Below, piece by piece: positions 25,661 to 63,000 of a stretch of DNA of 64,000 nucleotides; position 1 is the stretch's first letter; each line of letters begins with the position of its first letter. The position numbers and the translations under genes are program-made. Below the pieces are notes generated by a model. That model worked only from the letters and a program-made list of their open reading frames with translations, was not told the origin of the DNA and made no database searches. The DNA is from Raillietiella orientalis (lineage: Eukaryota), in assembly GCA_036172245.1 (NCBI GenBank), contig JAYWIR010000130.1, forward strand, positions 1-64,000, given 5' to 3'.

Positions 25661-25678
25661 ACCACAAGAGGGTTTGGC

Positions 25679-28600
25679 GTTGCCACCCGGGTACGCCCAA
25701 GGCGTTTATTTATATACTCAACAATGCGTTGTACAAGGCCCCACCACGGTAATGGACACGCGACCTGTCAGGACACCGGGAAGCAGCCCGGCGTGATACC
25801 CCCCGACAGCAAAAAGGGATGGAGGAAAAACAAAAAGAAAAATGAAAGACATAAACAAACAAAAAAAGGTTTGGTGGGTTGGGAAGGGATTACCATAGAA
25901 TGTGAGGAAAGCCCATCCGTCGAAGGAATCCCTCCAGGTCTGTCCGCACAATTCCCAGATAAGGCCATCAGGCAGCTCTCCGCCAGAAGCGTACTGCGTG
26001 CTGGATGACGTCCCTCTCGTTCCAATCTTCATCTTTGCTGCTGGCATGGCTCCAAGCCGCCACGATAAATCGAACGCAGCACAGGGCTGCGAGGGCTGCT
26101 GCTGGCTGCAGGGTGTCCTGCACGGAGAGGGGGCGCAAAACGTCTCTAAGTGCACTGCCCTTAGGGAGCCCGAAAGTCTTCCCGAACCGTTCCCAAAGGG
26201 GTCGGAGGGCATCACAATCCAATAAAAGGTAGGGGAGCGATTCTTGCTCCCCACATCTGGCACACGCAGGATCCACAGCTCCTTTCGTCCAGTGGAATTG
26301 GCGTGCGTTGCAGGGTAGACCCCAGTGCAACAGCAGCAACGCCGACTCTTGCCACTTGAGGAGCAGGATCCGGGATTCCTTCATCACTGGGGGCAACTTG
26401 AGCTCTTTCCTGGGGATGGCGAGCAGCTCGCCTCATGACAAGATTCCACGCGGCTGGACGCTCGGGGTCGTAGCGTTTGCCAGTTGACCCATGGTCCAGC
26501 CGCTCATCTTATCCCTTCCCTCCAAGCAGCATGAAACTTGCCACCTTTGCGTCCGGCTGCGGTAAAGCGCCCTCCACAGGAAGGGCATCGCCGTAGCAAG
26601 GCAGATTGTCTCGGCCTACGTGCTTGTAGCAGGACTCTCCAAGAGAACCCGCAGCGTGCAGCGCGCGTATGGGCCGCATGGGAGACGATTCCACGTTTCG
26701 GGGCTTCTCTGTTTCACAACAGCCCAGGTGTTGATGTTTTCCTCCAGCCAAGCGGAGAAGTTGGCAGGGCTGCAAACCATCCAGCGGTTCTTTATGGCCA
26801 GGGTTGCCATGCGCATGTGCAGTAGGCCGCATCTTCGGATCTTCCGTCCGGGGCACAGAAAAAAAAAAGCAAGTCCCTCGCACCGGGACACACGGCTGGC
26901 GAGAAGGCGTGCCGAAATGCACCATGGGGTGCTCCATAGCTTAGCTGCGATGGCCAGGGTGCGCCATCGCAGCTGTATGTTTAGGCAGTCAAGCGTTAGG
27001 AGGCCAAGCTTGCCGTCCCGACGCGGAGCGCATAAGTCTTTTAGAGGCACACATGGCCTCCCGCTGCCCAAGAGGGCGATGCGGAGATAGTCTTTGGTAC
27101 TCTTATTCAACTCACGGAGGACGGGGCAAACAAAAAGCACGGGGTGGAGGATGGAAGTCGCGAACGCATTCCACATAGCGGCCCGTTCCGGTAGAAGGAA
27201 CTTGCCTTCCAAGAACGAATCGATTGCCAACAATACCTTTTGGAGACGACCTGACCAGGCTTCTGCGAGGCAGAAGTCCCCCAACGGAACACCCAGGTAC
27301 TTCAGGCACCTGACCGCGTGGATCCCCAAGCGGATCCAGTTAGGCCGTTCAGCCCACGTCGCCACCACCGGTACCACCGACGACTTCGCCTTGTTCACCC
27401 GCAATCCACTCCCACAACTTCACAGGTCGAAGAAGTCCTCGACTGCGGCTGCCGGGGCGGACATGGGCTACATCAGCAGGAGATCGTCGGCGTATGCTGG
27501 AACGGCGGGTGTGCCGGAACACGAGCTAGGCAAGGCAGCCAAGGTTGCCCTGTACGCTCTTAGCACCAAATCAAAGTAGGTGGTAAAGAGCAGGGGACTG
27601 AGGCTATCGCCGTGCCGTATGCCCCGCCGCACCGGCACGCCATACACCTGTTGACCTGAAAAACTCATATTAACAATGTCGTTGCGGCAGCAGCAGCGCA
27701 GGTAGGATAGAAATGAGGGTGGAAAGCCCATGCGACCCAGGAGCTCCAACAGTAGCTCCTGGTCCACGCAGTCAAACGCCTTATGCAGATTGACCGCGAT
27801 CGCTAGGGCACCTTTTCCTGCTTTTGTATCCATTCCCGGCCCTGCTGGAGGCCCTAAAGCTAAGTTGCCAATCTTGGCCCCAGTTCCGTTCGGACAACGC
27901 TGCACATGGTACCATGTGCACGCGAAGTACAGGTTGGCATCCATACTTCGCCTGGGAACAGCATATGCCTCTTCTGGGCTAATTATGGAGTTTGTCACCT
28001 GTCCTAAACGCAAAGCCCACAGCCCAGCAATCAGCTTGGCTTCACTATTAACAATTGTCATCGGACGCCAATTGCTGAGTTGTCTTAAGTCTCCTCCATT
28101 TGGGAGGAGCCTCACTCGGGCTGAACGAAACGAGGCGGGAAGGTTGCCTTCGTCGTGGATCAGCCCGGTCAACTGAAGCACCAGGGGTGCCAACTCTGTC
28201 GCGAAGCATCGGAAAAGCTCCGCTGGTAGGTCGTCCCCTACCGGCGCCATACGACTCTTCAGCCTTTTAATACCGGTAAGAATTTTGCCGGTAGTAAAAG
28301 GCTCGTCGAGGCTAATCATCTCTTCCTCCCCTATTTCCGGGGCTCCGTCCGGAAGCAGGAGCCGCAATGCATCCCTCTGTAAGGGTGCCCTGGCGTAAAG
28401 GGAGCAATAAAATCCCTGTACAAGGTGCCTGATCACGTTTGGGGCCGCGCGCTCCCGACCCTGGTCGTCCAGCAAGCTGGCCGACCCGGATTTCCAGGCT
28501 TGGCGCTCGGCCTTGGCTCGGTATTTTGCCAAACGACGGACGTTGGGGGTTCACTCGTACCGGCGGGCCTGTAAATAGGCCGAATGATTGCGACCCTTTT

Positions 28601-29019
28601 CCCCAAATCCGAAGGGAAGACGGTGCAAGGGGAACTAGTCGCAGAACTCCCAAACCGAGCCCTTAAATAGCTCCCAATCGGCGAATTTCCGGAGGGTGAC
28701 GCCTCTCAGGAATTGACATTGTTCTTTTGCAGATGAGAGTCGCATCCAGTCCCCAGAAAGCCGCCACGCTCTGGACGGGGGTCCCTTGTTACGCGGGCAC
28801 ACCTCGAAGATTTACCTGGAATGGTCCGAGAGCGTCGACGCAACTCTCCCCCGTTTGCCGACCCGTGAACACAGGTCGGCATCCAGGAAGACGTGATCTA
28901 TGCTTCGGTCGATTCCCTTCACGTCCACCAGGAAGTTGCGCGTGCGCATGGCAGCGCCCAACTCGTTGGCCGTGCGTTCTTTCGCTTGGGGCTCACCTGA
29001 AAGCAGACGGAGATTAAAG
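25679..29019 (-). mobile_element. Element K: ORF2 from the GDFN motif to the 3' end
   Basis: FNLRLL, IDH, SDH, NLHKAFD, YADD, CARCGEQESLPYLLLDC; 3' UTR homologous to N and W. Confidence 0.9.
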
Positions 29020-32000
29020 TTTGTCACCCGGTCACGCTGGGGCTTTATTAATAATAATAAACTAGTCAGGGACAATGTCCCCAACCAACAGAACGACAGG
29101 TGAACTGAGAGAAATTCTTGCACCGCAGGCCTGGTAAACCAATTGCTCGCAACCTGAGAGGAATAAAGGGATAACAAACAAAAATACAAAAACGGGAGGG
29201 AAGGGTAATGTGTCTTTGGTTAGGCTCCGTACTTAGGGGGATTCAAACGGAGAGCACATGGAATGATTTGGAGCCTGTTGGGATGCGGGTGTGAAGAGAA
29301 AGTACAGAATCAGTTCATGGAGGGTAGGGCAATGATCACTGTGTTGTCCGCTGCTGAGCTTGTGTAAACCGGTGGTGTATATCGGCGAGATTCCTTTTTG
29401 ACTCCTCTGTCAAATAAGGCCATCAAGCGGCTGCTTTCATGTGGAGGAATGCTTTGCTGAATACCTCTTGGTGCTGCACGTTGATTACCATCGCCTGGCG
29501 AACTGAAACTATTGCGCGTATGCAATTGATGGTTGCAATCCTTGCTCTTAGGGACATGCCGCTCGGCGTGAAGAATCGTCGAAGCAACTCTCTTGCGGTG
29601 TTCACGGGATGCATTAGTGCTGTTGTCAGCCTACGCCACGTTACTTCTAAGACACCTCAGTCCAGAAGTACGTGCGGGATCGACTCTGTCGACCCGCACC
29701 GAACGCAGTTCGCAGACGCAAGTCCCCCGGAGTCCCGATGCCAACGCTCGTTGCACTGAAAACCCCAGTGAACGAAAAGCAGCACGGCTCGTTTCCAAGC
29801 AGGGGAGAGCAGCGAAGTGTCAATACACTATGGAGGGACTACAAGTTCTACGGGGGTGACAGCAAGTTCTTCTGCCCACCGGAGGAGTCCCTTTTCAGTA
29901 ACACTAGGAGTGGCGGCGTCCGCCAACTCACTCCACTTCCTGGCGCCAAGGAGTTTCGATTTTCCCGCTATCGTGCAGGGAACCTCCCACCTCGCCGGTT
30001 GGCAACTGTCACTTATTGCCCTGAGGGCTTACTGCGCTGCGGCGAGAGGCGAAGCAGCCAGGGTAGAAAACTTCACCTCGATCTGCAGTTCTTCTTTCAA
30101 AGATCGCAAAAGAAGATGGCGCAGGGCGCGAAGATCTTCAAAGCGAATTCCTTGGAACGCCGGTTAGGATTCAACAGACTCCTGCCGTTAAGCTTCAAAG
30201 TTCATTGGGTGGCAGGAGATCCACGAATGGGCTTCCAGAAGTGCGGTCAACTTACCCAATGGAAGTCTAAACCTCGCTTCCTGTATTGGGTGTTTGGCAA
30301 AAACAAGAGCAGTCCTTTGCTTCCGGCGCATCTCCGCAGAAGAAAGCGTGCAGGCACACACAGGGGGGATGTCCAAAGCTAAGCACACAGTGCCAGCAGT
30401 CGAAACAGCACATGCAGTCTTATTCGCATCATTGTCAGGATACCCAAACCAAAATCCCGACGTGGAGCAGCCAATTCTTTAAAGAGGATCCTGGATCTCG
30501 TCGGACCACGGAGAACTTTCTAAGCAAGCGTTTAGCCAGCTGTTTTGCCGCATAGGAAGGGTCCAAAACAAAAAAGAGGGGGCGGAGTAGGGGGACCACA
30601 AAAATGTTCCAAATAGTCGCCCGTTCGTGCAGGGTAACCTTGCCGTTAATGAACGGGCTGACGGACAACTCTGCTTTCTGAAGGCAGTCTGAACACGCTT
30701 CGGCTACGCCGAGAGCGCCCGAAAAAACGCCAAGGTACTTAAAGTACCTGCTCGTTGGGATTCCCAGGCGGATCCAGTCTGATTGCCCCTCCCACGACGC
30801 TGATACCGAAAGGATCACTCTCTTCTCTCTGTTCACGCTGACGTGCGCTCCACGACGAACCAGGTCGAAGAATTCTTCGACACTGGACGCCGGGGTGGAC
30901 ATGGGGAGCAGAAGAAGCAGGTCATCAGCGTAGGCGACCACGGCAGGCGTTCCCGGGCAGGAGCTTGGCAAGTGAGACAGCGTCAGCCTGTATGCTGTAA
31001 GCATCAACTCAAAGAAGATGCTAAAGAGTAACGGGATTAAGCTATCACCTTGCCGAATGCCTCTGTGCACGGGAATACCGCACAAGAGGCAGCCGCTGAA
31101 ACTAATACAGGTGAGCGCGTGGCGCCAGCAAGCTCGCAAGTAAAGCAGAAGATGCTCCGGAAGTCCAAGGCGTTCCAGAATCTCCAAGAGCAGCACCTGG
31201 TTTACGCAGTCGAAAGCCTTGTGGAGGTCGACTGCGACCTCAAAGGCACCTGGAGTTTCCTCCTTCCTTCGGCGCCTGTTCTTATTGCCTACGGCTGGGA
31301 CTTTCACCTCAGCCAGGCTTTGTTGCGCCACGACTTCCTCCAGCTGCAACCAGGTACGCGCGAAAAGGATGTTCGCCTCCATGGATCGTCCGGGAGCAGC
31401 GTAGATTTGTTCCGGGCTCAACACAGATTCCGCGATACTTCCTAACCGCGCGACCCACAGCTTATAAAACAACTTGACGTCCGAGTTTACCAGGGTGATC
31501 AGACGCCAGTTGTCAAGTTGGCGCGAGTCTACGCCTTTCAGCAGGAGACGCAACTTCGCTAAGCGGCCCTCGCCTTGTACTCCGCGAGACGACCAACATC
31601 TGTGCGTCTAGAAAACGTGCGGGCCTGCAGAAAGTCTCTACAGTTGGCCACGCCTTCTCCGAAACCGCTTGGAAGCCGGTGTAAGGGGAATTGGCAGCAG
31701 AACTCGCGGACAGATCTTTTGAGATCGTCATAGTCCGCGAGTTCTTGAATGGCGAAGCCTCGAAGGTGTTCACGGAGATGCTCCGCAGCCTCCGGATGCC
31801 TAAGCTAATCCGCCTGCATCCTCCAGTTTTGCAACGGGGGCCGCTTGGCTGGCGGAGGGATCTCAAACTCCAACCTGTGGTGGTCAGAAAGCCTAGTCAA
31901 CAATCTTCCTCTTCTACCCACACGCGAATGCAGGTTTTTATCGAGGAAAACGTGATCGATCGATCTTTCCATTTCAGGTTCGCTGACCATCAAGTTGGCG

Positions 32001-34569
32001 GCGTGCACCGACGCGTACATCTCGATGGGCAGCGCGCGCTCACTGGGGCGGCCCAAATAGTCGGAGAGCAGACGGACGTTGAAGTTTCCAGCGACGAGTT
32101 GCGCCACTTGGAAGCCCGAGTTGTTGAGCCAGTGGCTCTGCACCTCACCAAAGAAAGCAACTCTTTCTTCGAGGTAGCGAGAGCCACTCGGCGCGTAGAC
32201 GTTCGTAACGACGAGATCGATGGACTCGGACCACTTGATGACAAGTTGGCCTACCCGTCCTTCGTCGTCAAAAGGAACACCACGCACCGCTTCCGCCATT
32301 TTTCCTTCTACGAGGAATGCGACCCTGAAGGTGTGGGCGTCGCTGCACCGCCAATGAAGCGTTCTGCTTGCGCGCTCCTCGATTTCGGCTGCCTGCTCGT
32401 CGGAGATTACGTGAATCTCCTGGAGGACCACCAGGTCGATGGGACGGAGGGTTTCGGCTACTGATCGCCTCTTTTCGTCGTTCTGCATTCCGTTTACGTT
32501 CCAACACGCGACAGACAGACGACGAGAAGACGCGATTCCCTGCATTACTGTTGTGAAGGCGGCGGCTTCTTGCTCGCTTTATCTGGCGAGCGGACGGCGT
32601 GCAGCATTACCGGTTGGAGGGGTTGCCTCCGTCCTTCGTCGTGCTGCATGCAGTTGAGGTGCCCACCTTATGTGTCTCCTTCTCGAATTTTGGAAGGTTT
32701 CAAGCTGCTTCGCGGTTGGAATCTCCCGCCTGCTGACCTTTATACGACGCGCCTCCGTTTCCGAAATAGTCACTTGACGTTCGGAAATCGGGTCGTTCTC
32801 CGATGCGGAGTCCGAATAGAGTTTGCGTGACTCGCTCTTCGCGGCACGCGAAGAGCAACGGCTGTCTTTTTTTGGACAGCGATCGTTTTTGCGCTCTTTG
32901 GTGATCGCTTTTCTCGAAAGCTGTTTTTACAGCTCGCGCGATGTCAGCATCAGGGCGCAATATTGGACAAGGAACTTTCGCGCGAGTCTTTTTCATCACT
33001 CGAGTGTTCTTTGCCTTGAGGAGCGCTCTCGACGGATGCTGTGGAGCGTTTTTTGGAGCTTTTTTCTCACCGCTCCTGTCCACCACCGTCCACTCGCTTT
33101 CCCCGTATTCGGAGGCGATCTCCTGTTACGCCGCGAAAACTATTGAGGTTAACTCCTCGGCCGTCAGCCGCGCTACGTGCGCGACTGCCGATAACGTCTC
33201 CGTCGGGGTCGCATTCTTCAGTCAGAAGCTTCCTCTCCGATCGTGCGCACGGAGAGCGTTTCTCCGCTGACGAGGTGCTGCCGCGAGGCGCGCGATTATT
33301 TTTTCCGGTTTTCGAATGCTGAACGAAGGACTCCTTTCTTTTTTGGCCATTGGGCTTTTTCGGCTTTGATGGAAGCAAGGTCAAGGAATGTTTATTTTCC
33401 ACTTGACCGCGATCGCCGTTTAGCGGTTCTTTTCCCTTTGCCTTCGTTGGGCTCTGGATTCAAACCGCGTTTCCGCGATCCTTGACACGAGCTCTGGAGT
33501 CGTCCTTTGAGCTTCCGCGCCATTTCTTCTGCACCTTCCCTGCCGCTAAGTGGGCGCGAGGGGCTTTAACGTTAAGAACCTCTGCTGCTGTCCGGCATTT
33601 CGCTTCGCATCGGAACGAGACTCAGCCCGTGCGCACTGTTTTTCCTCTGCCACGTTTCTTTTTTTCGCGACGTATTTCGCGCGCTGATGCTTTGCGGATG
33701 CCTTTTTTCTAGCAAGGTCCAAGCAATTCTTTAAGTTGTGCCCGGATTGCTTGCAATGACGGCATTTACTAGAAGGGCACTTTTGTGGATAATGCCCCTT
33801 TTCGCCGCCTCTTTCGCATGCTCGCGGCATGCCTGCATGCCACAAGTGAACGACCGTGTCGTTCACCTGCAGCTTAGAGGGTAGAAGCCGGCGGTCCGGC
33901 ATGGTTATTCGAACCGCGGCACTACCGCTGACGATGGATGGGAAGTCCTTAAGGGTGCTTCCAACATTCCACAGAGCATGGACCGTGGCGAATTTCGCTA
34001 ACACAGTCCTCAATTAGAGGTCGGAAGTTTCCGGTTCGATGCCGTAAAGCTTCGCCACGAACGACTCATCCATGGTAGACGGGAAGACCTTCTTACCACG
34101 GATGGACAAAGGAGTGCGCAGCAAGCGTTGCACAACAGCCACGTCTTTGCAGATCACTTTGAAATATCCCAAGCTTTTGATGGGCATAATGGCCAGAAGG
34201 TCTTCCTCCCGCACGCCAACACGGGTCAGTTCATCGTTGAACGGATTACCGTCGCGAACAGTAAAAAATCCACTGACCTGGTAGCGGATTGAGGGATTGT
34301 AGCCCTGAGCTACGTAGGCCTGCACCTTTGCCTCGTTGGGTGTTACCCCTTTGAAGGCTGCCGCGGCAGCAACGTCAGCAATACTTCTCGCCATTTGCGA
34401 GGCAGAAGAAGAGCAGATGGCCGTCGGTTCCTCCATTGCAGATCCGGATGCTAATCCTCCATCTTCAGAAGCTTCGGCTTGGGTCGCCCTCGTCTTCGAA
34501 ATGCACGACACCAGGATGAAGCGAATGAAAGCCCGGATACGAGAGCGAAGAAAAACACGTTCCGAACTC
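29020..34569 (-). mobile_element. Element L: near full-length copy (internal ORF2 deletion near 31560) nested in an APE GDFN motif
   Basis: 5' GGAACGTG 34556-34563; ORF1 VQAYVAQGYNPSIRY; TAATG 32543-32547; DLHKAFD, YADD; 3' AATAAA plus hairpin; GATTAAA (29012-29018) and GATTGAA (34570-34576) at the flanks. Confidence 0.9.
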
Positions 34570-34770
34570 GATTGAATTCTCTCGCTATCAGGTGCGCCCG
34601 TGGCACGCCTGCTTCGGCCGACCAGTCTCGCCGCAGGGCTTCGAGGAACGCAGTGCGTTCTCCGCGCCTGTGGCTGCTGCGGGGCGCGTACACGTTCGTG
34701 ACCACGAGGTCGATCGAGTTGGACCACTTGAGAACAAGTTGCCCAACTCGACCTTCCTCGTCGAACTGTA
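34570..34770 (-). mobile_element. APE fragment upstream of L (probable 5' continuation of K)
   Basis: QFDEEGRVGQLVLKW...NVYAP...AHLIAREFN. Confidence 0.8.
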
Positions 34771-37560
34771 CGGACATGTTTCTCCTGCACTCCTACCGCT
34801 TCGGCTTGAGAAGTCTTCTTTATTTTTTTTCGTCTGATAGAGTGTGTGGCGCATCGTCGGTGTCCCATGGCAGAAATGCCAGCGGACACCGCGATGGAGA
34901 TTGGAGTAGGAGAGGCTACTTCCTCTTTCCAACCCATGGTGGTAAGGGCGATCGCCTTCACGGAGGCGAGGGCATCAATCCCCGTGAAAAAGGGTGCAAG
35001 CGTGTCCTCGGAGCCATCCTCGCCAATGACGAGGACTTGGAGCGCCGTGGCTGCAGCACCATCCGCTGATGCCATGGCCGAACAAACAGCCTATAAAGAA
35101 CAAAGGTACAAGCCGTCTTTCATCTATAAGGTAGGCAATATCTTTGTTGGAAATACCGCTTGCAACTTTGAGAAAAAGTTGCAGCGGCTCAATGTTAAAG
35201 AAGAAGATTTGGAAGGTCTTTCAGTGTTAAGCGGTGGTCAGCGGGTGCAGTTGACTTGTAAGGATGGAAGCCTGGCTCAACGCTTGCTGAACACCCCCAT
35301 TACGCTCGAAGGCAGAAAGCTCTTCCCTGTAACTGAGGACTGCTCGGTAGTCGCGCACCTCACGGAAGTTACCCTGCGCATGTCGACGGAGGGCGTGCAG
35401 GAGGAACTGAGCATGTCATGCTGAGTTCTTCCGGCACGGTTCACGCGCTTTGGAGCAAGCCCAACGTCTTACAGTCCTATGGAAGGCTGTTTAGTGGCAT
35501 GGCAACAGCGCGTGTAACCGTGCATGAGAACGGTGAGTTACTTCACAATATAGACGTCGCCAACGAAAAGGTCGATATCTGGCACGTCAGGAAACCCGAG
35601 TTTTGTGGACATTGCAATGAGACAGGGCACCTGAAAAAACGGTGCCACCACATCGAGTGTTTCTCGTGCGCAGAAAAGGGCCACCTCCAGAAAATGTGCC
35701 TAAAGCGCGTAACTTTGGCTCGTCCCACTTTGAAAAAAGCTCAGAAGCACGTGTTGACAAAACTTTGAAGCCCAAGGAGGCTACAGCAAGGCGTAGTCAG
35801 AAGCAAGACCTAGAACCCTTTCAGCAAACGCCGGTCGAGAAAACTTTCGACGGCGCTGATAAGGAAGGCTGGCGGACGGTGAAGCAAAAGAAACCAAAGC
35901 ATACCGTAGCCACGAAAGCGGAGCCAGAGGCGAAACCTTTGAACAGGAGAGAGCGCCGCGCACTACTCCTTTGAAGCTCGGTCACTTTGGAGCGCGTGGA
36001 GGCCATAGAGGTCACTACCGGGGGAGATATCTCCCCCTCGTTTGCGTGGAAGCCGCGATCACCGAAGGATAACCCTCTCTGAAAACAGAGGTGGATCCTT
36101 CGACGCGCTGTCCGTAATCGAGGACGAAGCCTTCGAGCAGGCTGCGGAAGAGCTCGAGGCTTCACTCGTCAGCCACGAGATCCCTGCGCAAAAAGCCTTG
36201 AAAAGGCCGGCCGTGGTTAAGGCACCCGAAGAAGGTGATACTGATCCGGACGCCGGTATTGCGTCCTCCTTTGCTTAGGCGCCTCCAAAGAAGACCGGAC
36301 GCAAGTCTAAGAATCCTAGGAAGCGACTCCCGACAAAGAACGAGGGTGAGGACGCACCGGCAGTCGGGGGGGAGCCGACAGCATGGTAACGGAGGGAGCT
36401 AATATTTCACTCCCCGCTACCGAGCAGCTGTCAACCCCAATGGAGGTGGGGGAGTAGGTAGGTGACAACCTCCCACTTCCACCGACCGTCCCAGCAGGCG
36501 AATTGGACCTCATGGAGGAGGAAGCGCAGGTAGGAGATATCTGCATGCCCACCGCGATTAGGCCTGTATTCGAATCGGCCTCGATGGAGGAGGAAGAACC
36601 GGTGTGCGATGCAACCCCTCCTCCATCCGTCCCGCCCGATATGGTGAAGGTAACCGCACTGCCAAGTTTCCAGGATTAACCCCTGGGCTCGCTTGTCGCC
36701 AAAGGATCCGCGTGGCCTGTTGGAATGTCAACATGCTGCGCGACGACGGAACCAGGCGAGATACAGCCGACACCCTGCGAGAATTCGACCTAGCGCTTCT
36801 GCAGGAGAACCACGTGATCATTGCAAGAGAAGTCGAGGAGATCGAGAGGATCGCAGGGCGTCGGTTGTATTGGCGATGCGGAAACCGCAACACCTGCGGT
36901 GTCGCGATCTTTCTGAAGCCAGAATTCGACGACTCCGTGTGGAACGTACGCTTCGTTGGCAACGGTCGTGTTAGACAGATAATTCTATGCTGGTCTGACA
37001 CGATCGATCTCATCGTTTCTAACGTGTATGCTCCGAGCAGCAGCAAAGGATACGCGGAAAGAACTCAGTGCTTCCAGTACTTGAAGCGCGACTAGCTGAC
37101 AGATGCAGGAGTGCGCAAAGCTCACCTAATAGCCGGGGACTTAAACCTCCGCCTGCTCTCAGGTGCGTGCTGCACGCAAAAGAAAATGCCGATCGAGTTA
37201 TGCTCCGCCATGCGCGCGTGCAACTTGATGCAGGGACACCTGGAAATGGAGAACAGCATCGACTACGTTTTCCTCGACCACGACATGTTTACTCGAGTCG
37301 GTATACCAGGAAGGCTCCTGTCGACGCTGTCCGAACATTTCCGTATGAGGTTCGATGTCTGGCCACGCAATAAGGGACCCCCATTCTGGGCGTGGGGTCA
37401 ACCGGGGGATTAGACGAGGCTTCCAGGTGCGGCGGATCATCTCCGCCAATTCCTAAGAGACGTCACCCTCCGGAATCTCGAGGATAGGGACGTTTTCAAG
37501 CGTTCGGTCCGCGAGTTCTGTGAGGAGTTTCCCCTGGAACGCCTATTCTCCGGATTTAAG
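34771..37560 (+). mobile_element. Element M, 5' part: ORF1 (~34876-36679) and APE
   Basis: GGACATG 34772-34778; CGHCNETGHLKKRC, CFSCAEKGHLQKMC; ACWNVN, GDLN; ends REFCEEFPLERLFSGF. Confidence 0.9.
37551..37560 (+). repeat. Target-site duplication CGGATTTAAG (partner CGGATTTTAAG at 41765-41775)
   Basis: Flanks element N; both copies share AAG where other families have GGN. Confidence 0.8.
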
Positions 37561-40500
37561 GTTATCACCCGGGTACGCCCGGGGCGTTTATTTATAAACT
37601 CTACGTGCGTGGTAAAAGGACCCACCACGGCCGTAAACACAGTACCTGTCGGGACACCGAGACGCAGCCCGGAGTGGCACTAACCGACAGCGAAAAAGAA
37701 TGAGGGAAAAATAAGAATAAAAATAAAGAAATAAACAAACAAAAAGAGTTTGGAGGGCAGGGTAGGGAACACTGGACGCTGTGAGGAGGGCCCATCTGTC
37801 GAAGGAAGCCCTCGTGGTCTCTCCGCATATTTACCAGATGGGGCCATCGAGCAGCTATTCGCAACAAGCGTACTGCATACTAGATAACTTCCCTCTCGTT
37901 CTCGTCCACAGCTTCGATGCTGGCGTCGCTCCAGGCCACCATGATGCCTCGGACGCAACACAGGGCTGCGAGGGCTGCTGCTGGCTGCAGGGCGTCCCGC
38001 AAGAAGAGAAGCCGGAGAACGTCTCTGGGTGCACTGTCCGTAGGGAGCTCGAGGGTCGTCCCTAACCGTTCCAAAAAGGATCGAAGGGCAGCAGCAGCAC
38101 AATCCTCAATAAGCTGGGGAAGCGAATCCCGCTCCTTGCAACTGGCACACGAAGAACCCACAGCTCCCCTCGTCCAGTGGAAGCGGCGTTCGTTGCAGGG
38201 TAGACCCCAGTGCAACAGAAGCAACGCCGACTCTTGCCATTTCAGGGGCAGGATCCTGGATTTCTTCATGACTGGGGGCCACTTTAGCTCATCCCTGGGG
38301 ATAGGTAGCAGCTTGCCCCATCTTGCTAATCCTCGGGGCTGGACGCTCGAGGTCAAGGCGTCGGCCAGTTCTCCTGTTTTCCAGCCACTTATCAACTTCT
38401 CTCGTCCCTTGATGAGGCAGGAGAATTGCCACCTTGGCGTCCGGCCGCTGTGAAGTGTCCTCCTCAGGAAGGGCAGCGCGGTAGCTAGGCAGGTGGTCTC
38501 TGGCAACGTGGATCTTGCTGGACTCTCAAGGAGATTCCGCAGCGTGCGGCGGGCGTAGGAGCTGCATCGGAGACGATTCCACGTCTCGTCGCTCCGCTCG
38601 TTTACCACTGCCCACGTTCCGATGTTCTCCTTAAGCCAGGCGGAAGAGTTGGAGGGGCAGCAAACCATCCAGCAGTTGTTCATGGCCAGGGATGTCATGC
38701 GCCCGAGCAGTAGGCGGCATCTTTGGATCTTCCGGCCGCGGCACATAAGAAAAGATGCGAGTCCATCACACCGGGACACACGGCTGGCAAAGAGGCGAGC
38801 CGGAATGCACAAAGGAATGCTCCACATCTTCGCTGCGATGGCGAGGGAACGCCATGGCAGCTGGATTTATACGCGCTTCAGCGTCAGGAGGCCAAGAACG
38901 CCGTCCCGATGCGAAGCGCTTTAAGTCCTTCAGAGGGACTCGGGGTGTCCCCTTGCCCCAAAAAGCGACACGTAGGAGGTCCTTTGTCCTCTTTTTGCAT
39001 TCTCTGGGGGCGGGGCAAACAAAAAGCAAGGAACGGAAAATGGGGGTTGCAAAAGCATTCCAACCGCAGCCCGTTCTGGCAAGTGAAACTTGCCTTCGGG
39101 GAACGGGCCGCTCGCCGTCTCGACTTTTTAAAGGCAGCTAAACCACGCTTGCGCAGGGGAGTAGTCCCCCAACGGCACACCAAGGTACTTGAAGTAGCTC
39201 GCAATGGGGATCCCCAGACGGACCTAGTCCTGCTGACATGCTCACGCCGCACCTATTGGCACCACCGACGACTTCGCCCGGTTAACCTGCCGTCCGGTCC
39301 ATCGGCTGAGCAGATCGAAGAACTCTCCGGCCGCCTTTGCAGGGGTGGACATTTGTAACAAGAGCAGCAGACCGTCGGCGTACGCTGCTACGGCGGGCGT
39401 GCCGGGGCACGAGCTCGGCAAGCGGGCCAAAGTCACCCTGTACGCTCTCAGCACCAACTCAAAGTAGGTGCTGAAGAGCAGAAGGCTGAGGCTATCGCCC
39501 TGCCTTATGCCCCGCCGCACCGGCACGCCATACACCTTTTGACCGCTGAAAGAGACGGTAATCATCGCATTCCGCAAGCAAGAGCGCAGGTAGGAATTCA
39601 GAGAGGGTGGGAAGTCCATGCGACCCAGGAGCTCCAAGAGGAGTTCCTGGTCTACACAGTCGAACGGCTTGTGGAGATCGACTGCGAGCGTTAGGGCCCC
39701 CTTCGCCGCCCAAGGGACCCTTCTCAGCCCGGCTGGCGGCCCTTATGTTGTATTGCCGATTTTTCCTCTCTTTTTCTTCTGTCTGCTCTGCAGGTGCACC
39801 CATGTGCTTGCGAAGAACAGGTTGGCATCCATACTTCGCCCGGGAACAGCATAAGTCTGCTCTGGGCTAATTACGGATTCTGCCACATGCCCCAGTCGCC
39901 AAGCCCATAGCCCTGCTATTAACTCAGCGTCCGTATTCACAATCATGATCGGACGCCAGTTCTTTAAATCTCTGAGGTCTCCCCTGTTTCGGTAGGAGCC
40001 TCACCCTGGCTGACCGAAACGAGGCGGAAACATCGCCTTCCTCTTGGATCAGCTTTATCAACTCTAGCAACAGGGGTGCGAGCTTTTCCGCAAAGCTATA
40101 AAAGAACTCCGCCTGCAGGCCTTCTTCCCCTGGAGCTTTACGCCTCTTGAGCCTTTTGATATTGGCGAGAATTTCGATGGTGGTAAGAGGCTCGTCAAGG
40201 CTTCTCATCTCCTGCTCCCCTATTGCCGGGGCGCTATCCGGAAGCAGACGCCGAAGGGCGTCTCAATGCGGATGCTCCCTGGAGTAAAAAGAGGAAGAAA
40301 AACTCCGCACGAGATGTCGTACCGACGCCGGGGACGAACATTCCCTGTCCTGGTCGTCCAGCAAACTGGCCGACGCGGATTGCCAGGCTTGGCGTTCGGA
40401 CCCAGAGCGCTACTCGGCCAGGCGACCGACATTAGGGGTTCTCTCGTACCTACGGGCCTGTAAATAGGCCCGATTGCTGCGAGGACCCTCGTCGAATCCG

Positions 40501-47266: not shown

Positions 47267-47274
47267 ACGCATCA

Positions 47275-50831: not shown

Positions 50832-51058
50832 AGGACCTCTCCACGCGCACCGTGATCCCTTCCCCGCCCTCCCATCCCTACAACATTTGTTCCCCCCCCC
50901 CATTTGAACTTTTTGTTTCTTTTTGTTTTTCTTTATTTCCCATCCCCGCGCATCGGAAGGACCTCTCCGGCACGGAGCCGGTAACCATCAAGCTGTTATG
51001 GAGTGGTGAACCTTCGGGTTCGCCACGCGACAATTTTTCTGTTAGTTTATTTCTATGA

Positions 51059-51088
51059 AATAAATGCCCCGGCACATCCGGGTGTGAA
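51059..51088 (+). terminator. Conserved 3'-terminal signal: AATAAA plus short hairpin (representative copy)
   Basis: AATAAA-TGC-CCCGG-CACAT-CCGGG-TGTGAA; variants at all 12 retained 3' ends. Function inferred, not shown. Confidence 0.65.
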
Positions 51089-51096
51089 CAACCCGC

Positions 51097-51618: not shown

Positions 51619-51634
51619 CAACCCGCCGCCTGAG

Positions 51635-53929: not shown

Positions 53930-54505
53930 GCATCCGGTATCCCAAGTGCCGTTTGAAGACGTTTCCAAAGAATTTGGACGGCAGGGCATTCAACTAAGTG
54001 CTGGGGGAGCGACTCCCGCTCCCCACACATAGCACACGCAGGATTTACTCTTCCCCGCGTCCAGTGGAAGCGGCGCGCGTTGCAGGGTAGACCCCAATGC
54101 AGCCACAGAAGCGCCGATTCTCGCCAGTTCAGGGGAAGAAACCTGGAGCCTAGTATAACCGGGGGCCACTTTAGGACATCCAATCGAATGCCGAGCAGCT
54201 CGCCCCATCTTCTTAATTTACGCGGCTGGAGTCTAGGGGTCGTTGCACCTGTCAACTCTCCCATGGTCCAGCAACTCATCGTCTTCTCTCTTCCTGCGAT
54301 ACGGCAGCAGACTTGCCACCTTGGCTTCCGGCTTCCGTGAAGCGCCCTTTGGAGGAAGGCCATCGCCGTAACAAGGGGTGTGCTTTCCGCCCACGTGCAA
54401 CTCGGTGGAAATTCAAGTATTTCACGGAGAGTTCGGCTGGCGTAAAAGCCGACTCGCATGCAGTTCATCTGGTCTTCGCACCTCTGGTTCAGCTTGGCCC
54501 AGGCT
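53930..54505 (-). mobile_element. Fragment S: ORF2 C-terminal piece of the K/N/W group
   Basis: HWGLPCNARRFHWTRG, CAMCGERESLPQHLVEC. Confidence 0.85.
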
Positions 54506-57464
54506 CCGGCATTCCGCGAAGGGCTGAGTAACGATTGGGCATACCACCACGCCCGTCTATACTCTAGGACTCCCGACGTTCGACGCCTGGCGGAGTATAA
54601 AGCTGGGGCTGAGCGACAGACCTGGCAATCCGGGTCGCCCAGCTTGCTGGACGCCCAAGGCCAAGAATGCTCAGCTCCGGTGAGAATAAACCGCATCCTG
54701 CGGGACTATTACTCCTCCTTGTACGCGCGTAGAACAACAGAGCGCGCCGTGGCGCAGCGCTTGCTGCCGCAAGGCGCCCCCGCGCTGCAGGAGGAGCAGG
54801 CACATGAACTCGCGCAGCCTTTCTCCATGGCGGAGATCGTCTCCGCCATCGGAAAGCTCCGAAAGAGAAAAGCACCAGGGGAAGACGGTCTGCCCGCGGA
54901 GTTCTACCAAGGCTTCGTGGCGGAGCTGGCCCCCCTGGTGCATCGGCTATGCATGCTGATCCGAGAACAAGGGGACGTCCCCAAATCGTTCCGGTCAGCT
55001 AGAGTACGTCTCCTGCCGAAAGGAGGAGACAATCGTAACGTAGGAAACTGGCGTCCCATCACAGTAGTGAATGCGGATGCGTAGTTGCTTGCCAAGCTTT
55101 GGGCTGAGCGACTGGGACGGGTGGCGGAATCCGTGGTGAGTCCGGAGCAGACATACGCTGTTCCCGGACGAAGCATGGTGGCAGTTGCAACAAAGCGAAG
55201 ACCAGGGAGGTCAAGAGAATCCTGGATTCTCCTCTGACCAGGGAGGGGACGCCCTTCATGAAAAAGCGGCGCGCGGTACCCTTGCGGTCGCAGTCGATCT
55301 GCGTAAAGCGTTCGATTGCGTCGACCAGGAACTGCTTCTGGAGCTCCTGGAACGCTTCGGATTCCCGGCCGTCTTCCGGGCTCATCTGCGCTCCTGCTGG
55401 CTCTTCACTCTAATAAACATCTCTTTCAGCGGCAGGCACGTGTACGGCGTGCCGGTTCGGCGTGGCATAAGGCAGGGTGACAGTCTGAGCCCCATGCTCT
55501 TCAGCATCTACTTCGAGCTGGTGCTGAGGGCATACAGGGAGACTCTGGCAACCCTGCCAAGCTCGTGTCCCGGCACGCCTGCCGTGTCGGCCTACGCCGA
55601 CGACCTTCTGCTCCTGCTTCCCGGGTCCACCTTGGCGTCGGCGTTCGAAGATTTCTTTGAGTTGCTGCTCCGCGGGACGGGCCTCGAGGTGAAGAGAGAG
55701 AAATCCACAATCGTTCCTACATCACCACTACTTTCAAACAATACGGCGTGGGCCGGACGGCCGGACTGGATCCGCTTAAGGATCCCCACGGGCAGGTGCT
55801 TCAAGTACCTTGGCGTTCTGTTTGGGGACTTCTGCGTTGCAGAAGCCTGGTCCGACCGTCTCCAAAAGGTGGAGTTGGCGATCGGCCCGTTCCGGAACGG
55901 CAAGTTTTACTTGCAGGAGCGGGCCGCGGTGTGGAACGCGTTCGCGGCCCCCCTCCTTCGCCCCTTACTTTTTGTTTGCCCCGCTCCTTTCATCATACAG
56001 AGACGGACGAAAGCCCTCTTGAGGACTGCCCTTTGGGGCACAGCGAGGTCGCGAGTCCGATTGAAATACTTGTGCGCTCCACGCAGGGATGGTGGCTTGG
56101 GCCTCCTTACGTTGGAGCGCATTAACTTCAAACAACAATTCGAAAGTTAGCCCTTGCGGCTAGCTTATGGATGACGCCATTGTGCGATCCGGCACGGCTC
56201 CTCGCCAGAAGAGCGACCGGCTGCGAAGGATTGTCCTCGATCCTCGTGGCCTACCAGCGCAGCCTCTCCAACTCTGGTCCCGATTTGCGCCAGATGGTCG
56301 CCCTGATGAGGGAGAATACCTCGATCTCCTGCATCCCCGCGAACTGCACTGCCTGACTTCAGGAGTCAGCTTCCGCGTGGGCTGAGATCAACGGAACGAG
56401 CGAGGCGGAATACAACTGCCTACGACGAGGACCGTACGCTCGACAGACGCTGCAGGATATTATCAACACGCCCCGGAAGTTTCTGTGGGCTTCTTTCAGC
56501 CTTCATGCCCCCGTTCTGTCCTCCCTGAAAAACAGTAGAAGCAGCAACGAGCTGGCATCGTGGGTAGTGTCCTGCCTCATCCGAGGCAGGAAAAAACCTT
56601 TAAAGGCGTGGACGACTCGGGAGCTCACGGACGCTGCCACCCTGAGCGTCCCGCCTCACGGACTTGTGCGCTGGGGAGAGCTGCTCGCAATACCTCCGGA
56701 GGAGGTGAAGTGGCCCCCAGCGTGTTGGGATTGCGGCACACTTCCGTTGAAGTGGCAGGAGACGGCGTTGCTATTTCTGCACTGGGGACTGTTAAGCAGA
56801 GCACGCCTGTCTCACTGGACACTGGGGAATGTGGATGCCCGCTGTGTCGAGTGCGGAGAAAGAGAAACCTTCCCGCATCTCACCCTCGAGTGTGTCGCCC
56901 TGGATGGACTCTGGAGTCGAATCGCCCCAATCCTCCATCTTCCAGTAGGCGACCCTAAGGATATTTACCGTCGCCTCTTTCTGCGTGACGGCCTGCGCCC
57001 CGCTGCGTCTCTAGCAGTCCTCTGCTGCGTGCGCCGCATTGTGCAAAGGTGGCACGCCAGAAGAAGAGGCCCAAGATGCAGGGACGCCATCCACTGGACG
57101 ACGATCTCTCTAGAGACGGCGACAAGGTGGCGTCTACCTCCAACGGTAAAACCTGAACTTGACTATATCCTCAACAGGATGCGGAGGACCGACCCAGGCG
57201 CTTAGTGATCCCTTCCCTGCCCCCCCCCCTCTCCCCATACAACTGTTTCCCTCCCCGTTATCTCTCTTTTTGTTTGTTTTTGTTTTAGTTTTCCCTTCCC
57301 ATGCGCCTCGGGGATGGACCTAACCGGTGAATGCACCAGCTACCGACACGTCAACCAAGGTGGGAAAACCAAGTGTTTCCCACAATTAACTTTTGAAAGA
57401 CTTTATTATCTAATTTTTGTAGAAAATTAGAATAATAAATGCCCCGGTATATGCGGGTGGCAAA
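54506..57464 (+). mobile_element. Element T: ORF2 from the GFG site to the 3' end
   Basis: DLRKAFD, QGDSLSP, YADD, CVECGERETFPHLTLEC, stop 57205; AATAAA 57434-57439 plus hairpin. Confidence 0.9.
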
Positions 57465-57760
57465 CGTCGGCTGGAGCCGTGTATTCGCGGTCCTGGTCGT
57501 CGAGCAGAACTGTCGCCCCTGACTGCCACACCTGGCGCTCGGCCTTGGCCTTGTACTCGGATAATCGACCAACGTCCGCGTGCCTGGAATAGCAGGGGGC
57601 AGCAGAAAATCTCTTCTGTAGGCTACACCCCCTCCGTAGCCGCGCAGCAGCTGTTGCAAAGGAAACCGACGGCAAAACTGGCGGACCGCTCTTTTCAGTA
57701 CGGCCCTGCGGGCGAGCCACGGAGGTACCGGCGAAGATAGGCCTTTGGAGGAGGCGAACG
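57465..57760 (-). mobile_element. Fragment U: ORF2 linker piece
   Basis: LKRAVRQFCRRFPL...AERQVWQSGATVLLDDQDREYTAPADV. Confidence 0.85.
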
Positions 57761-60060
57761 GCGGACGCAATTGCTGTGCGCTCCGTGGATAGATAGTATT
57801 TTGTCTGGTGTTTCGTTTGTGTTTAGCGGGCGTTCACAGGCAGAAATGCCTGTGAACGCCGAAGTTTCAGGTGAGGAAGGCGGGAAGACCGCATCTCTTA
57901 AGCCAAAGGAGGTGGGATCACGCCCCACCACTACTTCTGAACCCCCGCAACTACGGCGAGGGCCTGGAGCGCGGCGGCTGCGGCGGAAACGCCCGATCTC
58001 GCCCCCTAAATACAATCCTACATCCAGGAGGGCTACCATCCAGCCCTCTTGTACAAGGTAGGAAATTTATATCCCCGTTAAGGGCGCTAAAGTTTGGCAA
58101 TATTATCAAAAAGATGGCCATTGCCGACCATGAAATTGTTTTCGTGTGACTTCGGAGCGGAGTGCAGTTGGCGAAGCACATCTGCAAGGATGCAGCTCTC
58201 ACCCACAAAATGCTCTGCACGCCCGTACAATTTAAGGGCAAAAATTTACTCCCCCACACAATGGACCACTCTATTGTGGTTCATCTTACCGGGACAACAG
58301 TGAGGATGGATGAGAACGGCATCCGCGGTGACCTTAAAAAATTTGCAAGCGTTTTCGCAATGTGGTAAAAGCCCAACACCTTCGGAGTGCACGTAACATC
58401 TAGTGGACGAGTAGGCGCGCGCGTGACGCTGCGAGAAAGCGTGCAGCTTCCCTACTAGTTCCAAATTGGCGACGAGTTCGTCGACGTTTGGTTGTGGGGA
58501 AACCTAAATTCTGTGGCAATTGTAAGAAGTTTGGGCACCTGAAAAACCGGTGCCCGGACGCAGGTTGCCCAACGTGCAGCGCGAAGGGCCACACCAAAGT
58601 AGTGTGCTCGATGAAGGTCGGTCAAACGCCGGAAATATCGCAAAATAAGAAAAGGAAGGCAAAAATAGCATTAAACCCCACAAAAGGGGATCAGCCGTCG
58701 CCTCCGACGGCGCGACAAAGTCGCGAGCCCAGCGTGAGCAGTGACGACCGGAATTTCAAAAAGGCGGCGGCAGAGTTGGCAGCCATGCTCCAGCAACCAC
58801 CCAAGGCCGAGAAGAAGGCCTTGAGGCGTCCGGCTGAGAAAAGAGGACAGGAAACTCCCGAGTCCGAAGCCGAATCCGGCAACGCTCCGGCTGTCGCTCT
58901 CCCGATGCGCAAAGCGGGCCGCAAGGAAGGCAACTCGCGGCGCTCCGCACCTCCACCGTCGGAGGAGGAAATGAGGTCGGACCACGACGACGGGGATTCG
59001 ATGTCTGCGAGGTCTCGGGACTCCTCGCCAAAGGCGGCCCAGGCCAAGCAGCATCCTCCAACCACCACCACAACCACCGAAGGACCACCTCCTTGCAAGG
59101 AACAGCCCGTCGCAATGGACACACAACTCCCGCTTGCTGAACAGCAGGCGGACGACCGTAAGCAATCACCATAAACACATTAACGCGTGGACTCTCTTCC
59201 TGCCGGCGACTGCGCGTAATCTGTTGGAACGTCAACGGGTTGCGCGACGAGGGCAGGAGGAGAGAAGTCGCCGCCATCCTCCGGGACTTCGACCTGGCGC
59301 TTCTGCATGAGACGCACGTGCTCCTTGCTGAGGAGGTCCAGGAAATCGAACGGATCGCAGGCGGGCGGCTTATATACGAGAACGGGAGACCGCACTCGCG
59401 GTGTGGCTTTCATGCTGAAGCCAGCCGTCGTTAATGCGCTGCGCGACGTGCACTTCGACGGGGAAGGTCAAATCGGGCAGTTTGTTGCCAAGTGCTCCGA
59501 CGCGATCGACCTCGTCGTGACCAACGTGTACGCGCCCGGCACGTGCCACAGGCGCGGGGAACGCACTGCGTACTTCGAAGGCCTGAGGCGAGATTGGCTG
59601 GCCGAAGCAGACATGCGAAAGGCGCACCTCATTGCCGGGACTTTAACGTCTGCCTGCTGGCAGGTGCGCCTGACATTCCCGAACAGCTGGTCAACGAGAT
59701 GTGCGCTGTCATGCGCGCGCGCAACTTGTTGACAGAAATACAGAGGATTGCCAGCAGCGTGGACCACGTCTATCTTGAAAAAGACCTGTGCACACGGATC
59801 GAAAAACGAGAGACACTTGGATCTTCGCTGTCGCACCATTCCCGGTTCTTATTAGAAATGCTTCCGCGCGACAAAAGACCGCCATTTAGGCATTGGCGTA
59901 TGCCAAGGGACTGGACGCGCCTGTCAGGAGCGAAAGAACATCATCGCAAATTCCTGCGAGGCGTTACCTTGAGAATCTCGCGGATTGGAACCTATTTAAG
60001 GACTGGGTCCGGTAGTTCTGTGAGCAGTTCCCTATGCAAGGACTGCCTTGGGGATTTGGC
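57761..60060 (+). mobile_element. Element V: 5' UTR, ORF1 (57846-59174, internally deleted) and APE
   Basis: GGACGCA 57763-57769; CGNCKKFGHLKNRC; ICWNVNG; ends QFPMQGLPWGFG. Confidence 0.88.
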
Positions 60061-63000
60061 GTTGCCACCCGGGTACGCCCGGGGCGTTTATTTATAAAAA
60101 AACTCTACAATTGCGGTACCAGGCCCCGCTCACGGCCTTATGCACGGGACCTACCGGGACGCCGGGACGCAGCCCGGCGTGGCACTCCCCGGCAGAGAAA
60201 GGGGATGGTAAAAACAAAAATAAAAACAAAAGGCAAACCAACAAATGAGGTTGGGAGGCAGCGAAGGGATCACTGTTCGCTGAGAGGAGGGCCCAACCGT
60301 TGAAGGAAGCCCTCGAGGTCCATCCGTATATTCCCCAGTTGGGGCCATCCAGAAGCTCTCCGCAAGAAGCGTTGGGCATATCGGATGACATCCCTCGCGT
60401 GTTGACCCACTCCTTCCTTGTTGGTGTCGCTCCATGCCGTCACGATGCCTCGGACGCAGCACAAGGCTGCAAGGGCTGCGGCTGGCTGCAGGGCGTCCTT
60501 CACGAAGAGGGGCCGAAGAACGTCTCTAGGGGAACTGCCTGTAGGGAGACCGAGGATCGTCCCAAACCGTTCCCAAAGGGGACGAAGGGCAGCACAGTCC
60601 ACAATAAGGTGGGAGAGCGATTCTCGCTCTCCGCACCTGACACACGCAGGATCCACAACTCCTCTTGTCCAGTGAGAGCGGCGTGCGTTGCAGGGTAAAC
60701 CCCAATGAAACAACAGAAACGCCGACTGTTTCCACTTAAGGGGCAGGATCCTGGATTCCTGAAGAAGCGGGGGCCACTTCAGCACATCCATAGGGATGGC
60801 CAGCAGCTCGCCCCATCTTCTTAGTCCTCGCAGCTTGACGCTCGGTGTAGTGGCGTCGGCCAGTTCTCCTGTTGTCCAGCCCCTGATCAACTTCTCGCGT
60901 CCCTCGATGCAGCAGGAGACTTGCCACCTTAGCGTTCGGCTGCTGTGAAGTGCCCTCCACAGGAAGGGAAGCGCCGTAGCTAGGCAGGTCGTCTCTGCCC
61001 ACGTGCATCTTGCTAAACTCTTCAGGAGATTCCGCAGCGTGCAGCGGGCGTAGGGGCTGCATCGGAGACGATTCCACGTTTCGTGGCTCCTCTGGTTAAC
61101 CGCTTCCCACGTTCCAATATTCTCCTCCAGCCAGGCGGGGCAGTTGGCGGGGCAGCAAACCATCCAGCTGTTCTCCTTGGCCAATGTTGCCATGCGACCG
61201 AGCATTAGGCCGCATGTTCGCATCTTCCGGCCACGGCTCAGAAGAAAAGACGCGAGTCCATCGCACCGGGAAACACGGCTGGCCAGGAGGCGGGCCGGAG
61301 TACACCAAGGGGTGCTCCACATCTTCGCTGCGATGGCGAAGGTTCGCCACCGCAGCTGCTTCTCCACGCGCTCCAGCGTCAGGAGGCCAAGACCGCCGTC
61401 CCGACACGGAGCGCACAAGTCCTTCAGAGGGACTCGGGGCCTCCCCTTGCCCCAAAGGGCAATACGGAGGAGGTCCTTTGTCCTCTTCTTCGATTCCACA
61501 GTGGAAGGGCAAACAAAAAGCCAGAAGCGGAGGATAAGGGCCGCGAAGGCGTTCCAAACCGCGGCCCGTTCCGGCAAGTGAAACTTGCCTTCCAGGAACG
61601 GGCCGATCGCCGTCTCGACTTTTTGGAGGCAGATGGACCACGCTTCCGCAGAAGAGTAGTCCCCCAACGGCACACCAAGGGTCTTGAAGCACCTCGCCGT
61701 GGAGATCCCTAGACGGACCCAGTCCTGCTGCCCTGCCCACGCCGCACCTATTGGCACAACCGACGTCTTCGCCCTGTTAACCTGCAGTCCGGTCCCGCGC
61801 CTGAGCAGATCGAAGAAGTCTCCGACCGCCTTTGCCGGGGTAGACATTGGCAACAAGAGCAGACGATCGTCGGCGTACGCTGCTACGGCGAACGTGCGGA
61901 GGCACGAGCTCGGCAAGGGGGCCAAAGTCACTCTGTACGCTCTCAGCACCAACTCAATGTAGGTGCTGAAGAGCAGGAGGCTGAGGCTATCGCCCTGCCT
62001 TATGCCCCGCCGCACCGGCACGCCATACACCTTGTGGCCGCTGAAAGAGACGGTAATCATCGCATTCCGCCAGCAAGAGCGCAGGTAGGAAATCAGGGAG
62101 GTTAGAAGCCCAAGCGACCCACGAGCTTCAAGAGAAGTTTCTGGTCAACACAGTCGAATGCCTTATGGAGGTCGACTGCGATCGCTAAGGCCCCCTTCCC
62201 CGCATGAGGGTCCTTACCCCTTCCCACTGGCGGCCCCAATGTGGGGTTGCCGACTTTTCCTATCCCTTTCTTCTCTCTTCTCTGCAGGTGCACCCATGTG
62301 CTTCAGAAGAAGAGGTTGGAATTCATACTTAGCCCGGCAACAGCATAACTCTGCTCCGGGCTAATTATGGATTCTGCCACCTGCCCCAGACGCGAAGCCC
62401 ATAGCCCTGCTATCAACTTGGCGTCCGTATTCACGATCGTGATCGGACGCCAGTTCTTTAAATCCCTGAGGTCTACCCCTTTCGGAAGGAGCCTCACTCT
62501 GGCTGACCGAAACGAGGCGGGAACATCGCCTTCGTCTCGGATCAGCCTGATCAACTTAAGCAGCAGGGGTGCCAACTCTTCCGCGAAGCTCTGAAAGAAC
62601 TCCGCGGGCAAGCCGTCTTCCCCTGGAGCTTTACGCCTTTAGAGCCTTTGGATACCGGCGAGAATTTCGCCGGTGGTAAAAGGCTAGTCGAGTCTTTCCA
62701 TCTCCTCCTCCCCTATTGGCAGGGCGCCATCCGGAAGCAAGCGCCGAGAAGCGTCTCGATCTGAGGGCTCCCTGGCGTAGAGAGAGGAATAAAAACTCCG
62801 CACGAGATGCCGTACCTACGCCGGGGACGAACATTCCCTGCTCTGGTCGTCCAGCAAGCTGGCCGACCCGGATTGCCAGGCTTGGCGTTTGGCCCCAACG
62901 CGGTACTCGGCCATGCGACGGACATTAGGTGTTCTCTCGTAACTACGAGCCTGTAAATAGGCCCAATGTTTGCAAGGACCCTCGCCGAAACAGGGGAGCA

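Follow-up and report, generated by a model that had tools for sequence, protein, structure and literature searches.

How do retrotransposons of the long interspersed nuclear element (LINE) type come to lie nested, in antisense, at one and the same coding motif of their own relatives? The question is raised by the first 64,000 nucleotides of contig JAYWIR010000130.1 of Raillietiella orientalis (NCBI GenBank assembly GCA_036172245.1), the whole of which we call the window. All coordinates refer to this stretch, and all counts given below come from it unless stated otherwise. One set of L1-like LINEs has repeatedly entered the ORF2 of its relatives here, in antisense and at the same three codons, which looks like the behavior of a site-specific element aimed at its own kind. 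Copies K, N, W and M, and probably S as well, form one L1-like group (the KNW group), and we consider it likely that this group inserts by target-primed reverse transcription at one short target in the second open reading frame (ORF2) of related LINEs.

Junctions at the G-F-G codons of ORF2

The LINEs in the window have an ORF1 with a CCHC knuckle and an ORF2 in which an apurinic/apyrimidinic endonuclease (APE) domain is followed by reverse transcriptase (RT) and zf-RVT. Equivalence of insertion sites was established by searching the window with ORF2 amino acids (aa) 260-380 using tblastn and converting the matches codon by codon against the ORF2 of element R, which provides the coordinate system. 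Between the APE domain, which extends to aa ~247, and the RT, which starts at aa ~490, ORF2 carries the motif L-P-x-G-F-G-E-G (aa ~318-325). The reference, the elements that meet at this motif and the series to which R belongs are as follows.

47194..50073, plus strand: ORF2 of R, intact reference (959 aa), with an unoccupied P-P-G-F-G-E-G at 48145-48165
60061..64000, minus strand: W, KNW-group LINE; ORF2 aa 16 is reached at 63901, and the element runs off the window end
58013..60060, plus strand: U, host of W; an ORF1 fragment and ORF2 aa ~4-320, ending in GGATTTGGC
37561..41765, minus strand: N, KNW-group LINE with complete 3' terminus and full-length start of the 5' untranslated region (UTR)
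34821..37560, plus strand: V-left, left flank of N; ORF1 and ORF2 aa 13-320, ending in GGATTTAAG
41766..44068, plus strand: V-right, right flank of N; begins with GGATTTTAAG, ORF2 from aa ~319; K's closest relative (80-92%)
25679..29021, minus strand: K, KNW-group LINE, ending on its 5' side at ORF2 aa ~181 by truncation or interruption, next to the 3' end of L
25666..25678, plus strand: host G-F-G remnant of 13 nt, reading R-G-F-G between the 5' end of M and the 3' end of K
23577..25665, minus strand: M, KNW-group LINE with full-length 5' UTR start, ORF1 and ORF2 to aa ~90, cut by H
53937..54505, minus strand: S, KNW-like fragment from the C-terminal part of ORF2, lacking both ends and joined to T-right on its 5' side
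54506..57467, plus strand: T-right, R-group LINE, right half of the host of S, from ORF2 aa 318 to its own 3' terminus
45330-53936, plus strand: R, R' and T-left, a head-to-tail series in which R is full length

N also carries an internal deletion (41126-41147) that joins ORF1 aa ~248 to ORF2 aa ~110.

The sequence-only reading of this DNA had placed the 3' ends of W, N and K directly behind the PxGFG codons of other ORF2 copies, in antisense, and had given them a common 3' UTR ending in GGGTG(G/A)(C/T)AAC. Both claims hold. All three inserts lie on the minus strand. The last base of K (25679) directly follows GGGTTTGGC (25670-25678), that of N (37561) follows GGATTTAAG (37552-37560) and that of W (60061) follows GGATTTGGC (60052-60060). 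To the left, V-left breaks off in ...L-F-S-G-F-K and U in ...L-P-W-G-F-G, and the short stretch beside K reads R-G-F-G. All three KNW-type 3' termini thus fall on the same nucleotide at ORF2 aa ~320, directly behind the second G codon of L-P-x-G-F-G (a K codon in V-left). The inserts end in ...CCGGGTG(G/A)(C/T)AAC and have homologous 3' regions, and in every case at this site the insert is antisense to the host ORF2. When the junctions were aligned to ORF2, as had been suggested along with these claims, the three 3' breakpoints were identical to the nucleotide and the S/T junction fell within 3 nt of them. Under a uniform model with a host of ~5.5 kb, three exact coincidences of position and orientation would arise with a chance of ~8e-9, or 7e-7 if any three of nine ends are allowed (a profile search counts 11 ends).

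Three 5' junctions also map to this site. The first is that of N, a full-length element whose 5' UTR begins at 41765, in alignment with the 5' starts of the other full-length elements E, L and M. Beyond 41765/41766 the plus strand resumes with GGATTTTAAG (41766-41775) and continues in ORF2 from aa ~319, so that N is flanked by a target-site duplication of 9-10 bp (GGATTTAAG / GGATTTTAAG). The AAG that replaces the second G codon is unique to this duplicated target among the site sequences compared.

The second 5' junction belongs to M, whose full-length start is separated from the 3' end of K by the 13 nt of the remnant (25666-25678) and nothing else. M groups with W and V-left in the N-terminal part of ORF2 (support 95/93) and with N in ORF1 (100/99). 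Together with the 13-nt remnant, these groupings mean that M is not the host of K; it is a further KNW-group insertion at K's target, forming a head-to-tail pair with K. Of the three hosts named earlier, V and T therefore stand and M does not, the host of K being the 13-nt remnant. The host of W, left unnamed at the time, is U.

The third is the S/T junction (54505/54506), where the earlier reading had the 5'-truncated end of S joining T at the PGFGEG position. Here minus-strand S, truncated at its 5' end, indeed adjoins plus-strand T-right, which starts with P-A-F-R-E-G. The host of N resumes at the motif position one codon further downstream, a difference of 3 nt, which gives implied duplications of 9-13 nt. 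Counting all of these, the site has six junctions, which stem from at least five insertions (K, M, N, S and W), S being 3 nt off.

Could these junctions all descend from one insertion, copied by segmental duplication of a composite or by 3' transduction, so that four junctions record a single event? Such copying would explain why the N and W loci form one collinear blastn alignment of 4458 bp at 80% identity that crosses the junction. When the two loci are compared in 200-column steps, however, identity rises at the junction from 58-70% over the host ORF2 to 76-92% over the insert, and it drops to 41-52% upstream of ~36675-36750 in the N locus and 59179 in the W locus. The trees likewise separate the hosts. 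N and W form one sister pair and K and V-right another (100/99 each), R and T-right cluster together (99/99), V-left and U each stand on a long branch of their own on the left side, and the N-terminal part of U's ORF2 groups with R/T-left (98/97). S groups weakly with K/N/W (74/92). The 5' ends differ (N and M full length, S truncated), as do the right flanks among N, M and S. The identity step at the junction, the different host clades and the different 5' ends exclude copying from one event, and we regard this explanation as extremely improbable. The events of K, M, N, S and W are independent, as had been argued from the visibly different host families, and the comparison of host and insert phylogenies proposed at the time (T-right with R, V-right with K, the N-terminus of U with R) agrees.

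We also considered the 5' inversion of LINE-1 by twin priming, which resembles the present arrangement in setting oppositely oriented LINE segments side by side. Twin priming joins an inverted 5' piece to a sense 3' piece of the same copy. It was rejected, as the element next to a complete 3' terminus is here a different and far more diverged one, and N possesses a full 5' end and a duplication of its own.

Probable target-primed insertion, the 3' box and family restriction

The complete and exact 3' termini, the duplication, the variable 5' ends and the constant orientation argue for target-primed reverse transcription at a fixed target. This target would be approximately GG(A/G)TTT(A/G)(A/G)(C/G), the G-F-G codon triplet of P-x-G-F-G-E-G between endonuclease and RT. 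An APE-type endonuclease would nick the sense strand of the host right after the second G codon, and the freed 3'-OH would prime cDNA synthesis on the 3' tail of the insert (...CCGGGTGRYAAC). Because priming would start from the sense-strand 3'-OH, the new copy would always be antisense and would split the host endonuclease from its RT. A second nick on the other strand, 9-13 nt upstream, would produce the target duplication, and reverse transcription may stop early, as in S. Since the target would survive in the duplication, it could be used again, giving head-to-tail pairs such as K-M, 13 nt apart. We infer the two nick positions from the junction sequences, and it would be the endonuclease, rather than pairing between RNA and target, that reads the sequence.

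All families in the window share a 3' box, although their ORF2 sequences are only 60-70% identical. It consists of AATAAA, a short GC-rich stretch, CCGGGTG and a tail of 4-7 nt (RYAAC, RYAAAC and variants). A profile search of the window with this box found 11 termini, of which 10 are strong matches and one is weak. Those of K, N and W share the tail G(G/A)(C/T)AAC and have homologous 3' UTRs; the remaining eight are located away from the G-F-G site.

10765, 16909, 23570, 25680, 29021, 37562, 51088, 51618, 57463, 60062: positions of 3' termini in the 3'-box listing
E terminus: antisense in D, aa ~296
H terminus: antisense in M, aa ~90
L terminus: same strand as K, at a G-D-F-N motif, aa ~181
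F terminus: head-to-tail behind Z
R, R' and T-left: head-to-tail series given above
T-right (Tr) and degenerate Z termini: both antisense, at aa ~380 of two hosts
16503-~16893, minus strand: Z, degenerate fragment of ~390 nt whose 3' terminus adjoins D

Seven of the 11 termini are thus antisense within an ORF2, and the G-F-G site is used by the KNW type alone.

A second antisense site is shared by Tr and Z. Both junctions (57467/57468 and 16502/16503) come after ...CAGCCGAC at ORF2 aa ~380; at the former, the plus-strand 3' terminus of T-right adjoins a minus-strand ORF2 fragment, X57, and at the latter Z adjoins D.

This second site bears on a different way of reading the target. In that alternative the endonuclease would be weakly specific, and the RNA of a master copy sitting in a G-F-G site would carry read-through flank that pairs with the nicked host, so that each lineage would inherit its site from the flank of its master. 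Read-through target sequence has a role in R1-type elements. Flank inheritance would give just such a second site as Tr and Z share; it would also yield exact 3' junctions and could account for one 3' box and tail type in all families whose sites nevertheless differ. The Tr/Z evidence is weakened by the similarity of the two composites, 69.5% on the host side and 72.9% on the insert side between Tr/X57 and Z/D: with host and insert so nearly equal, the two may be one duplicated composite. As the primer strand is host DNA in both models, junction sequence cannot separate reading by the endonuclease from reading by the RNA. We consider the RNA-read alternative unlikely.

Two further features of the 3' termini were examined. 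The consensus fold of nine 3' termini gave a predicted hairpin of 7 pairs with 0 compensatory changes, and we claim no structure. The plus-strand reading of the KNW 3' box (60061-60088) resembles P-P-G-F-G-E-G in tblastn; with ~10 of 18 nt matching by eye, this resemblance was judged to be chance.

Contrary evidence, mosaic flanks and the LINE nest

Several observations weigh against target-primed insertion at a fixed G-F-G target. The first concern the target sequence itself. The three 3'-junction targets fit GGRTTTRRS, but this motif was derived from those same occupied sites, so that the fit is circular and the motif is a description and not a test. Its rarity, on the other hand, speaks for the proposed target: the two strands of the 64 kb contain only 7 copies (8.3 expected), among them the three occupied sites and, as a fourth, the empty G-F-G site of K itself. 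The copy of the site in T-right, GCATTCCGC, fits at 5 of 9 positions. Ten G-F-G sites in the window are unoccupied. TTC or TAT/TAC is the F/Y codon in most of them, yet two, GGATTTGGG in K itself and GGGTTTGGT in E, match the motif well and are unoccupied all the same. In addition, the whole case rests on one window in which all copies are old and carry stops, and no relatives of the KNW 3' terminus were found elsewhere in a metagenome scan. That scan, made with the 20-nt KNW 3' terminus, returned three matches, which were treated as chance since none had the upstream box or a LINE context.

The remaining objection comes from the flanks of N, which do not look like one element. Compared with K (27962-29001), V-left (37161-37560) is 61-70% identical and V-right (41776-42415) 80-92%, and the step falls exactly at the N insertion site. 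K and W, by contrast, are evenly similar on both sides of it. Natural recombination in V or K, with the breakpoint at the site, is one explanation; the other is that the flanks of N come from two hosts that were joined later, for example by an exchange between two inserts. Mosaic flanks do not weaken the site preference; two hosts at N would mean one event more.

A similar discontinuity surrounds L.

29022..34570, minus strand: L, full-length element between K and P
34571..34813: P, a 240-nt piece, R/U-like (78-85%) and not K-like (68%)

The flanks of L, P and K, belong to different families and meet at one homologous position (29021/29022 and 34570/34571), with a 9-nt overlap at the G-D-F-N codons in which 6 of 9 positions match. 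U, too, is a mosaic: aa 185-317 of its ORF2 join the clade of K, N, W and V-left (96/97), while the N-terminal part sides with R/T-left (98/97). The V and P/K flanks show that rearrangement has taken place within the nest.

Should the G-F-G codons then be seen as a hot spot of recombination or breakage, at which LINE segments were joined by ectopic recombination or repair and not by targeted integration? The V/K step at the N insertion site, the meeting of P and K at one homologous position and the mosaic U would all be expected of such a hot spot. It leaves unexplained why complete 3' termini lie at the site three times, why N has a full-length 5' UTR start and a 9-10 bp duplication, and why the orientation is constantly antisense. 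Exchange between inserts after insertion explains the mosaic flanks equally well, and we think a recombination hot spot very unlikely.

More speculatively, each L1-like lineage in the window might home, in antisense, into an ORF2 codon motif of its own in its relatives, a generalization that we consider doubtful. If true, lineage-wise homing would build a LINE-only cluster and confine it, as in clusters of the Zepp or centromere type. Rival copies would be disabled, their endonuclease parted from the RT, and repeated nicking would drive exchange and leave mosaic breakpoints at the target, as in V and P/K.

The window as a whole is a pure nest of L1-like non-LTR (long terminal repeat) retrotransposons, as follows from the domain scan, the tblastn tiling and the match to human LINE-1 ORF2p. 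Its GC content is 50-64% throughout, and stop-to-stop frames of at least 200 aa are present across both strands. Exo_endo_phos (APE), RVT_1, zf-RVT or a CCHC knuckle is present in many of the 43 frames scanned. The Pfam profiles Exo_endo_phos and RVT_1 exceed the cut-off in R, F and others, and W scores 33.7 bits for RVT_1 and 34 bits for Exo_endo_phos. Searched by tblastn with ORF1 and ORF2 of R, the 64 kb is covered end to end by LINE fragments on both strands. The closest solved structures in the PDB are those of human LINE-1 ORF2p (E 2e-46). APE catalytic motifs are conserved in all window families, and the endonuclease alignment showed no obvious insertion specific to the KNW group. Hallmarks of LINEs are likewise present, with 5' truncation in S, H, R' and Z, a common box at the 11 3' termini and a duplication at N. 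Poly(A) or simple-repeat tails are absent from the window copies, which end in ...CCGGGTG and the 4-7 nt tail. Many LINEs have no poly(A), and the missing A run is compatible with their being LINEs.

The youngest copies in the window are those of the R, R' and T-left series. R' (51092-51621) is a 530-bp 3' fragment with the same 8 nt on both sides, and T-left is 97.5% identical to R from ORF1 on and breaks off at ORF2 aa ~204.

Close relatives of the KNW group are almost absent from public databases, which yield one fragment at 65% identity, followed by matches at 36% or less. This best of the 8 matches from the protein search is an unnamed 619-aa fragment. The representative protein library gave 37873 matches at E<=0.001, of which only one exceeds 36% identity. 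The second-best protein match, P0009, is a repeated RT fragment (31-38% identity), and the names among the 10 top matches include sea turtle, pseudoscorpion and Closterium, at ~30% identity.

Relation to known target-specific and self-nesting LINEs

Why some LINEs accumulate in clusters of their own kind is of broader interest. Some self-nested LINE clusters are proposed centromeres. In the available portions of the accounts of Zepp, Zepp-like elements and Cnl1, the sequence-level cause of such clusters is left unexplained. If LINEs carry their own short target within a conserved coding motif, LINE-only clusters would have a simple cause: targets would exist only in the cluster, their number would grow with every insertion, and a competitor would be put out of action by each hit. 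A protein-coding motif of retrotransposons would also join the known targets of site-specific APE LINEs. Since the nesting is antisense, double-stranded RNA would be predicted to arise from such clusters. A literature search of titles and abstracts did not find a LINE targeted to ORF2 codons of LINEs, which is not proof of absence.

Among known systems, the nearest in mode of insertion are the target-specific APE LINEs of the Tx1 and R1 clades. According to the part of the literature consulted, these have transposons among their multicopy targets; their 3' boundaries are precise, their 5' boundaries vary, and tandem insertion occurs occasionally (PMC4640811). The KNW group resembles them, as far as they are described there, in its APE endonuclease, apparent short multicopy target, precise 3' junctions, variable 5' ends and occasional tandem insertion. 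It is unlike them in that it enters, in antisense, a coding motif that lies within the ORF2 of LINEs related to it, members of its own group included.

In their distribution, the LINEs of the window recall Zepp and Zepp-like elements of green algae, L1-type LINEs that, going by the portions of their descriptions used here, occur almost only in nested clusters. Zepp is reported there to nest by targeting existing copies, giving tandem arrays of 3' ends and one cluster per chromosome (PMC8226300, PMC3446292). In the one window analyzed here, all of the 64 kb consists of nested LINEs. The arrangement differs, as Zepp forms tandem arrays of 3' ends and the same portions of its accounts name no antisense site at the level of codons; KNW copies also differ in having no poly(A).

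A second self-nesting example is Cnl1 of Cryptococcus, described in the part of its account considered here as a non-LTR element that inserts preferentially within itself and builds nested arrays (PMC9942834). By that description, Cnl1 lies in tandem orientation near telomeres, whereas KNW insertions are antisense, fall on ORF2 codons and also enter other families. What sets the present case apart from these systems is an exact, codon-level antisense target inside the ORF2 of relatives, used by one group only. The KNW group would thus be a variant both of the target-specific APE LINEs and of the self-nesting LINEs represented by Zepp and Cnl1.

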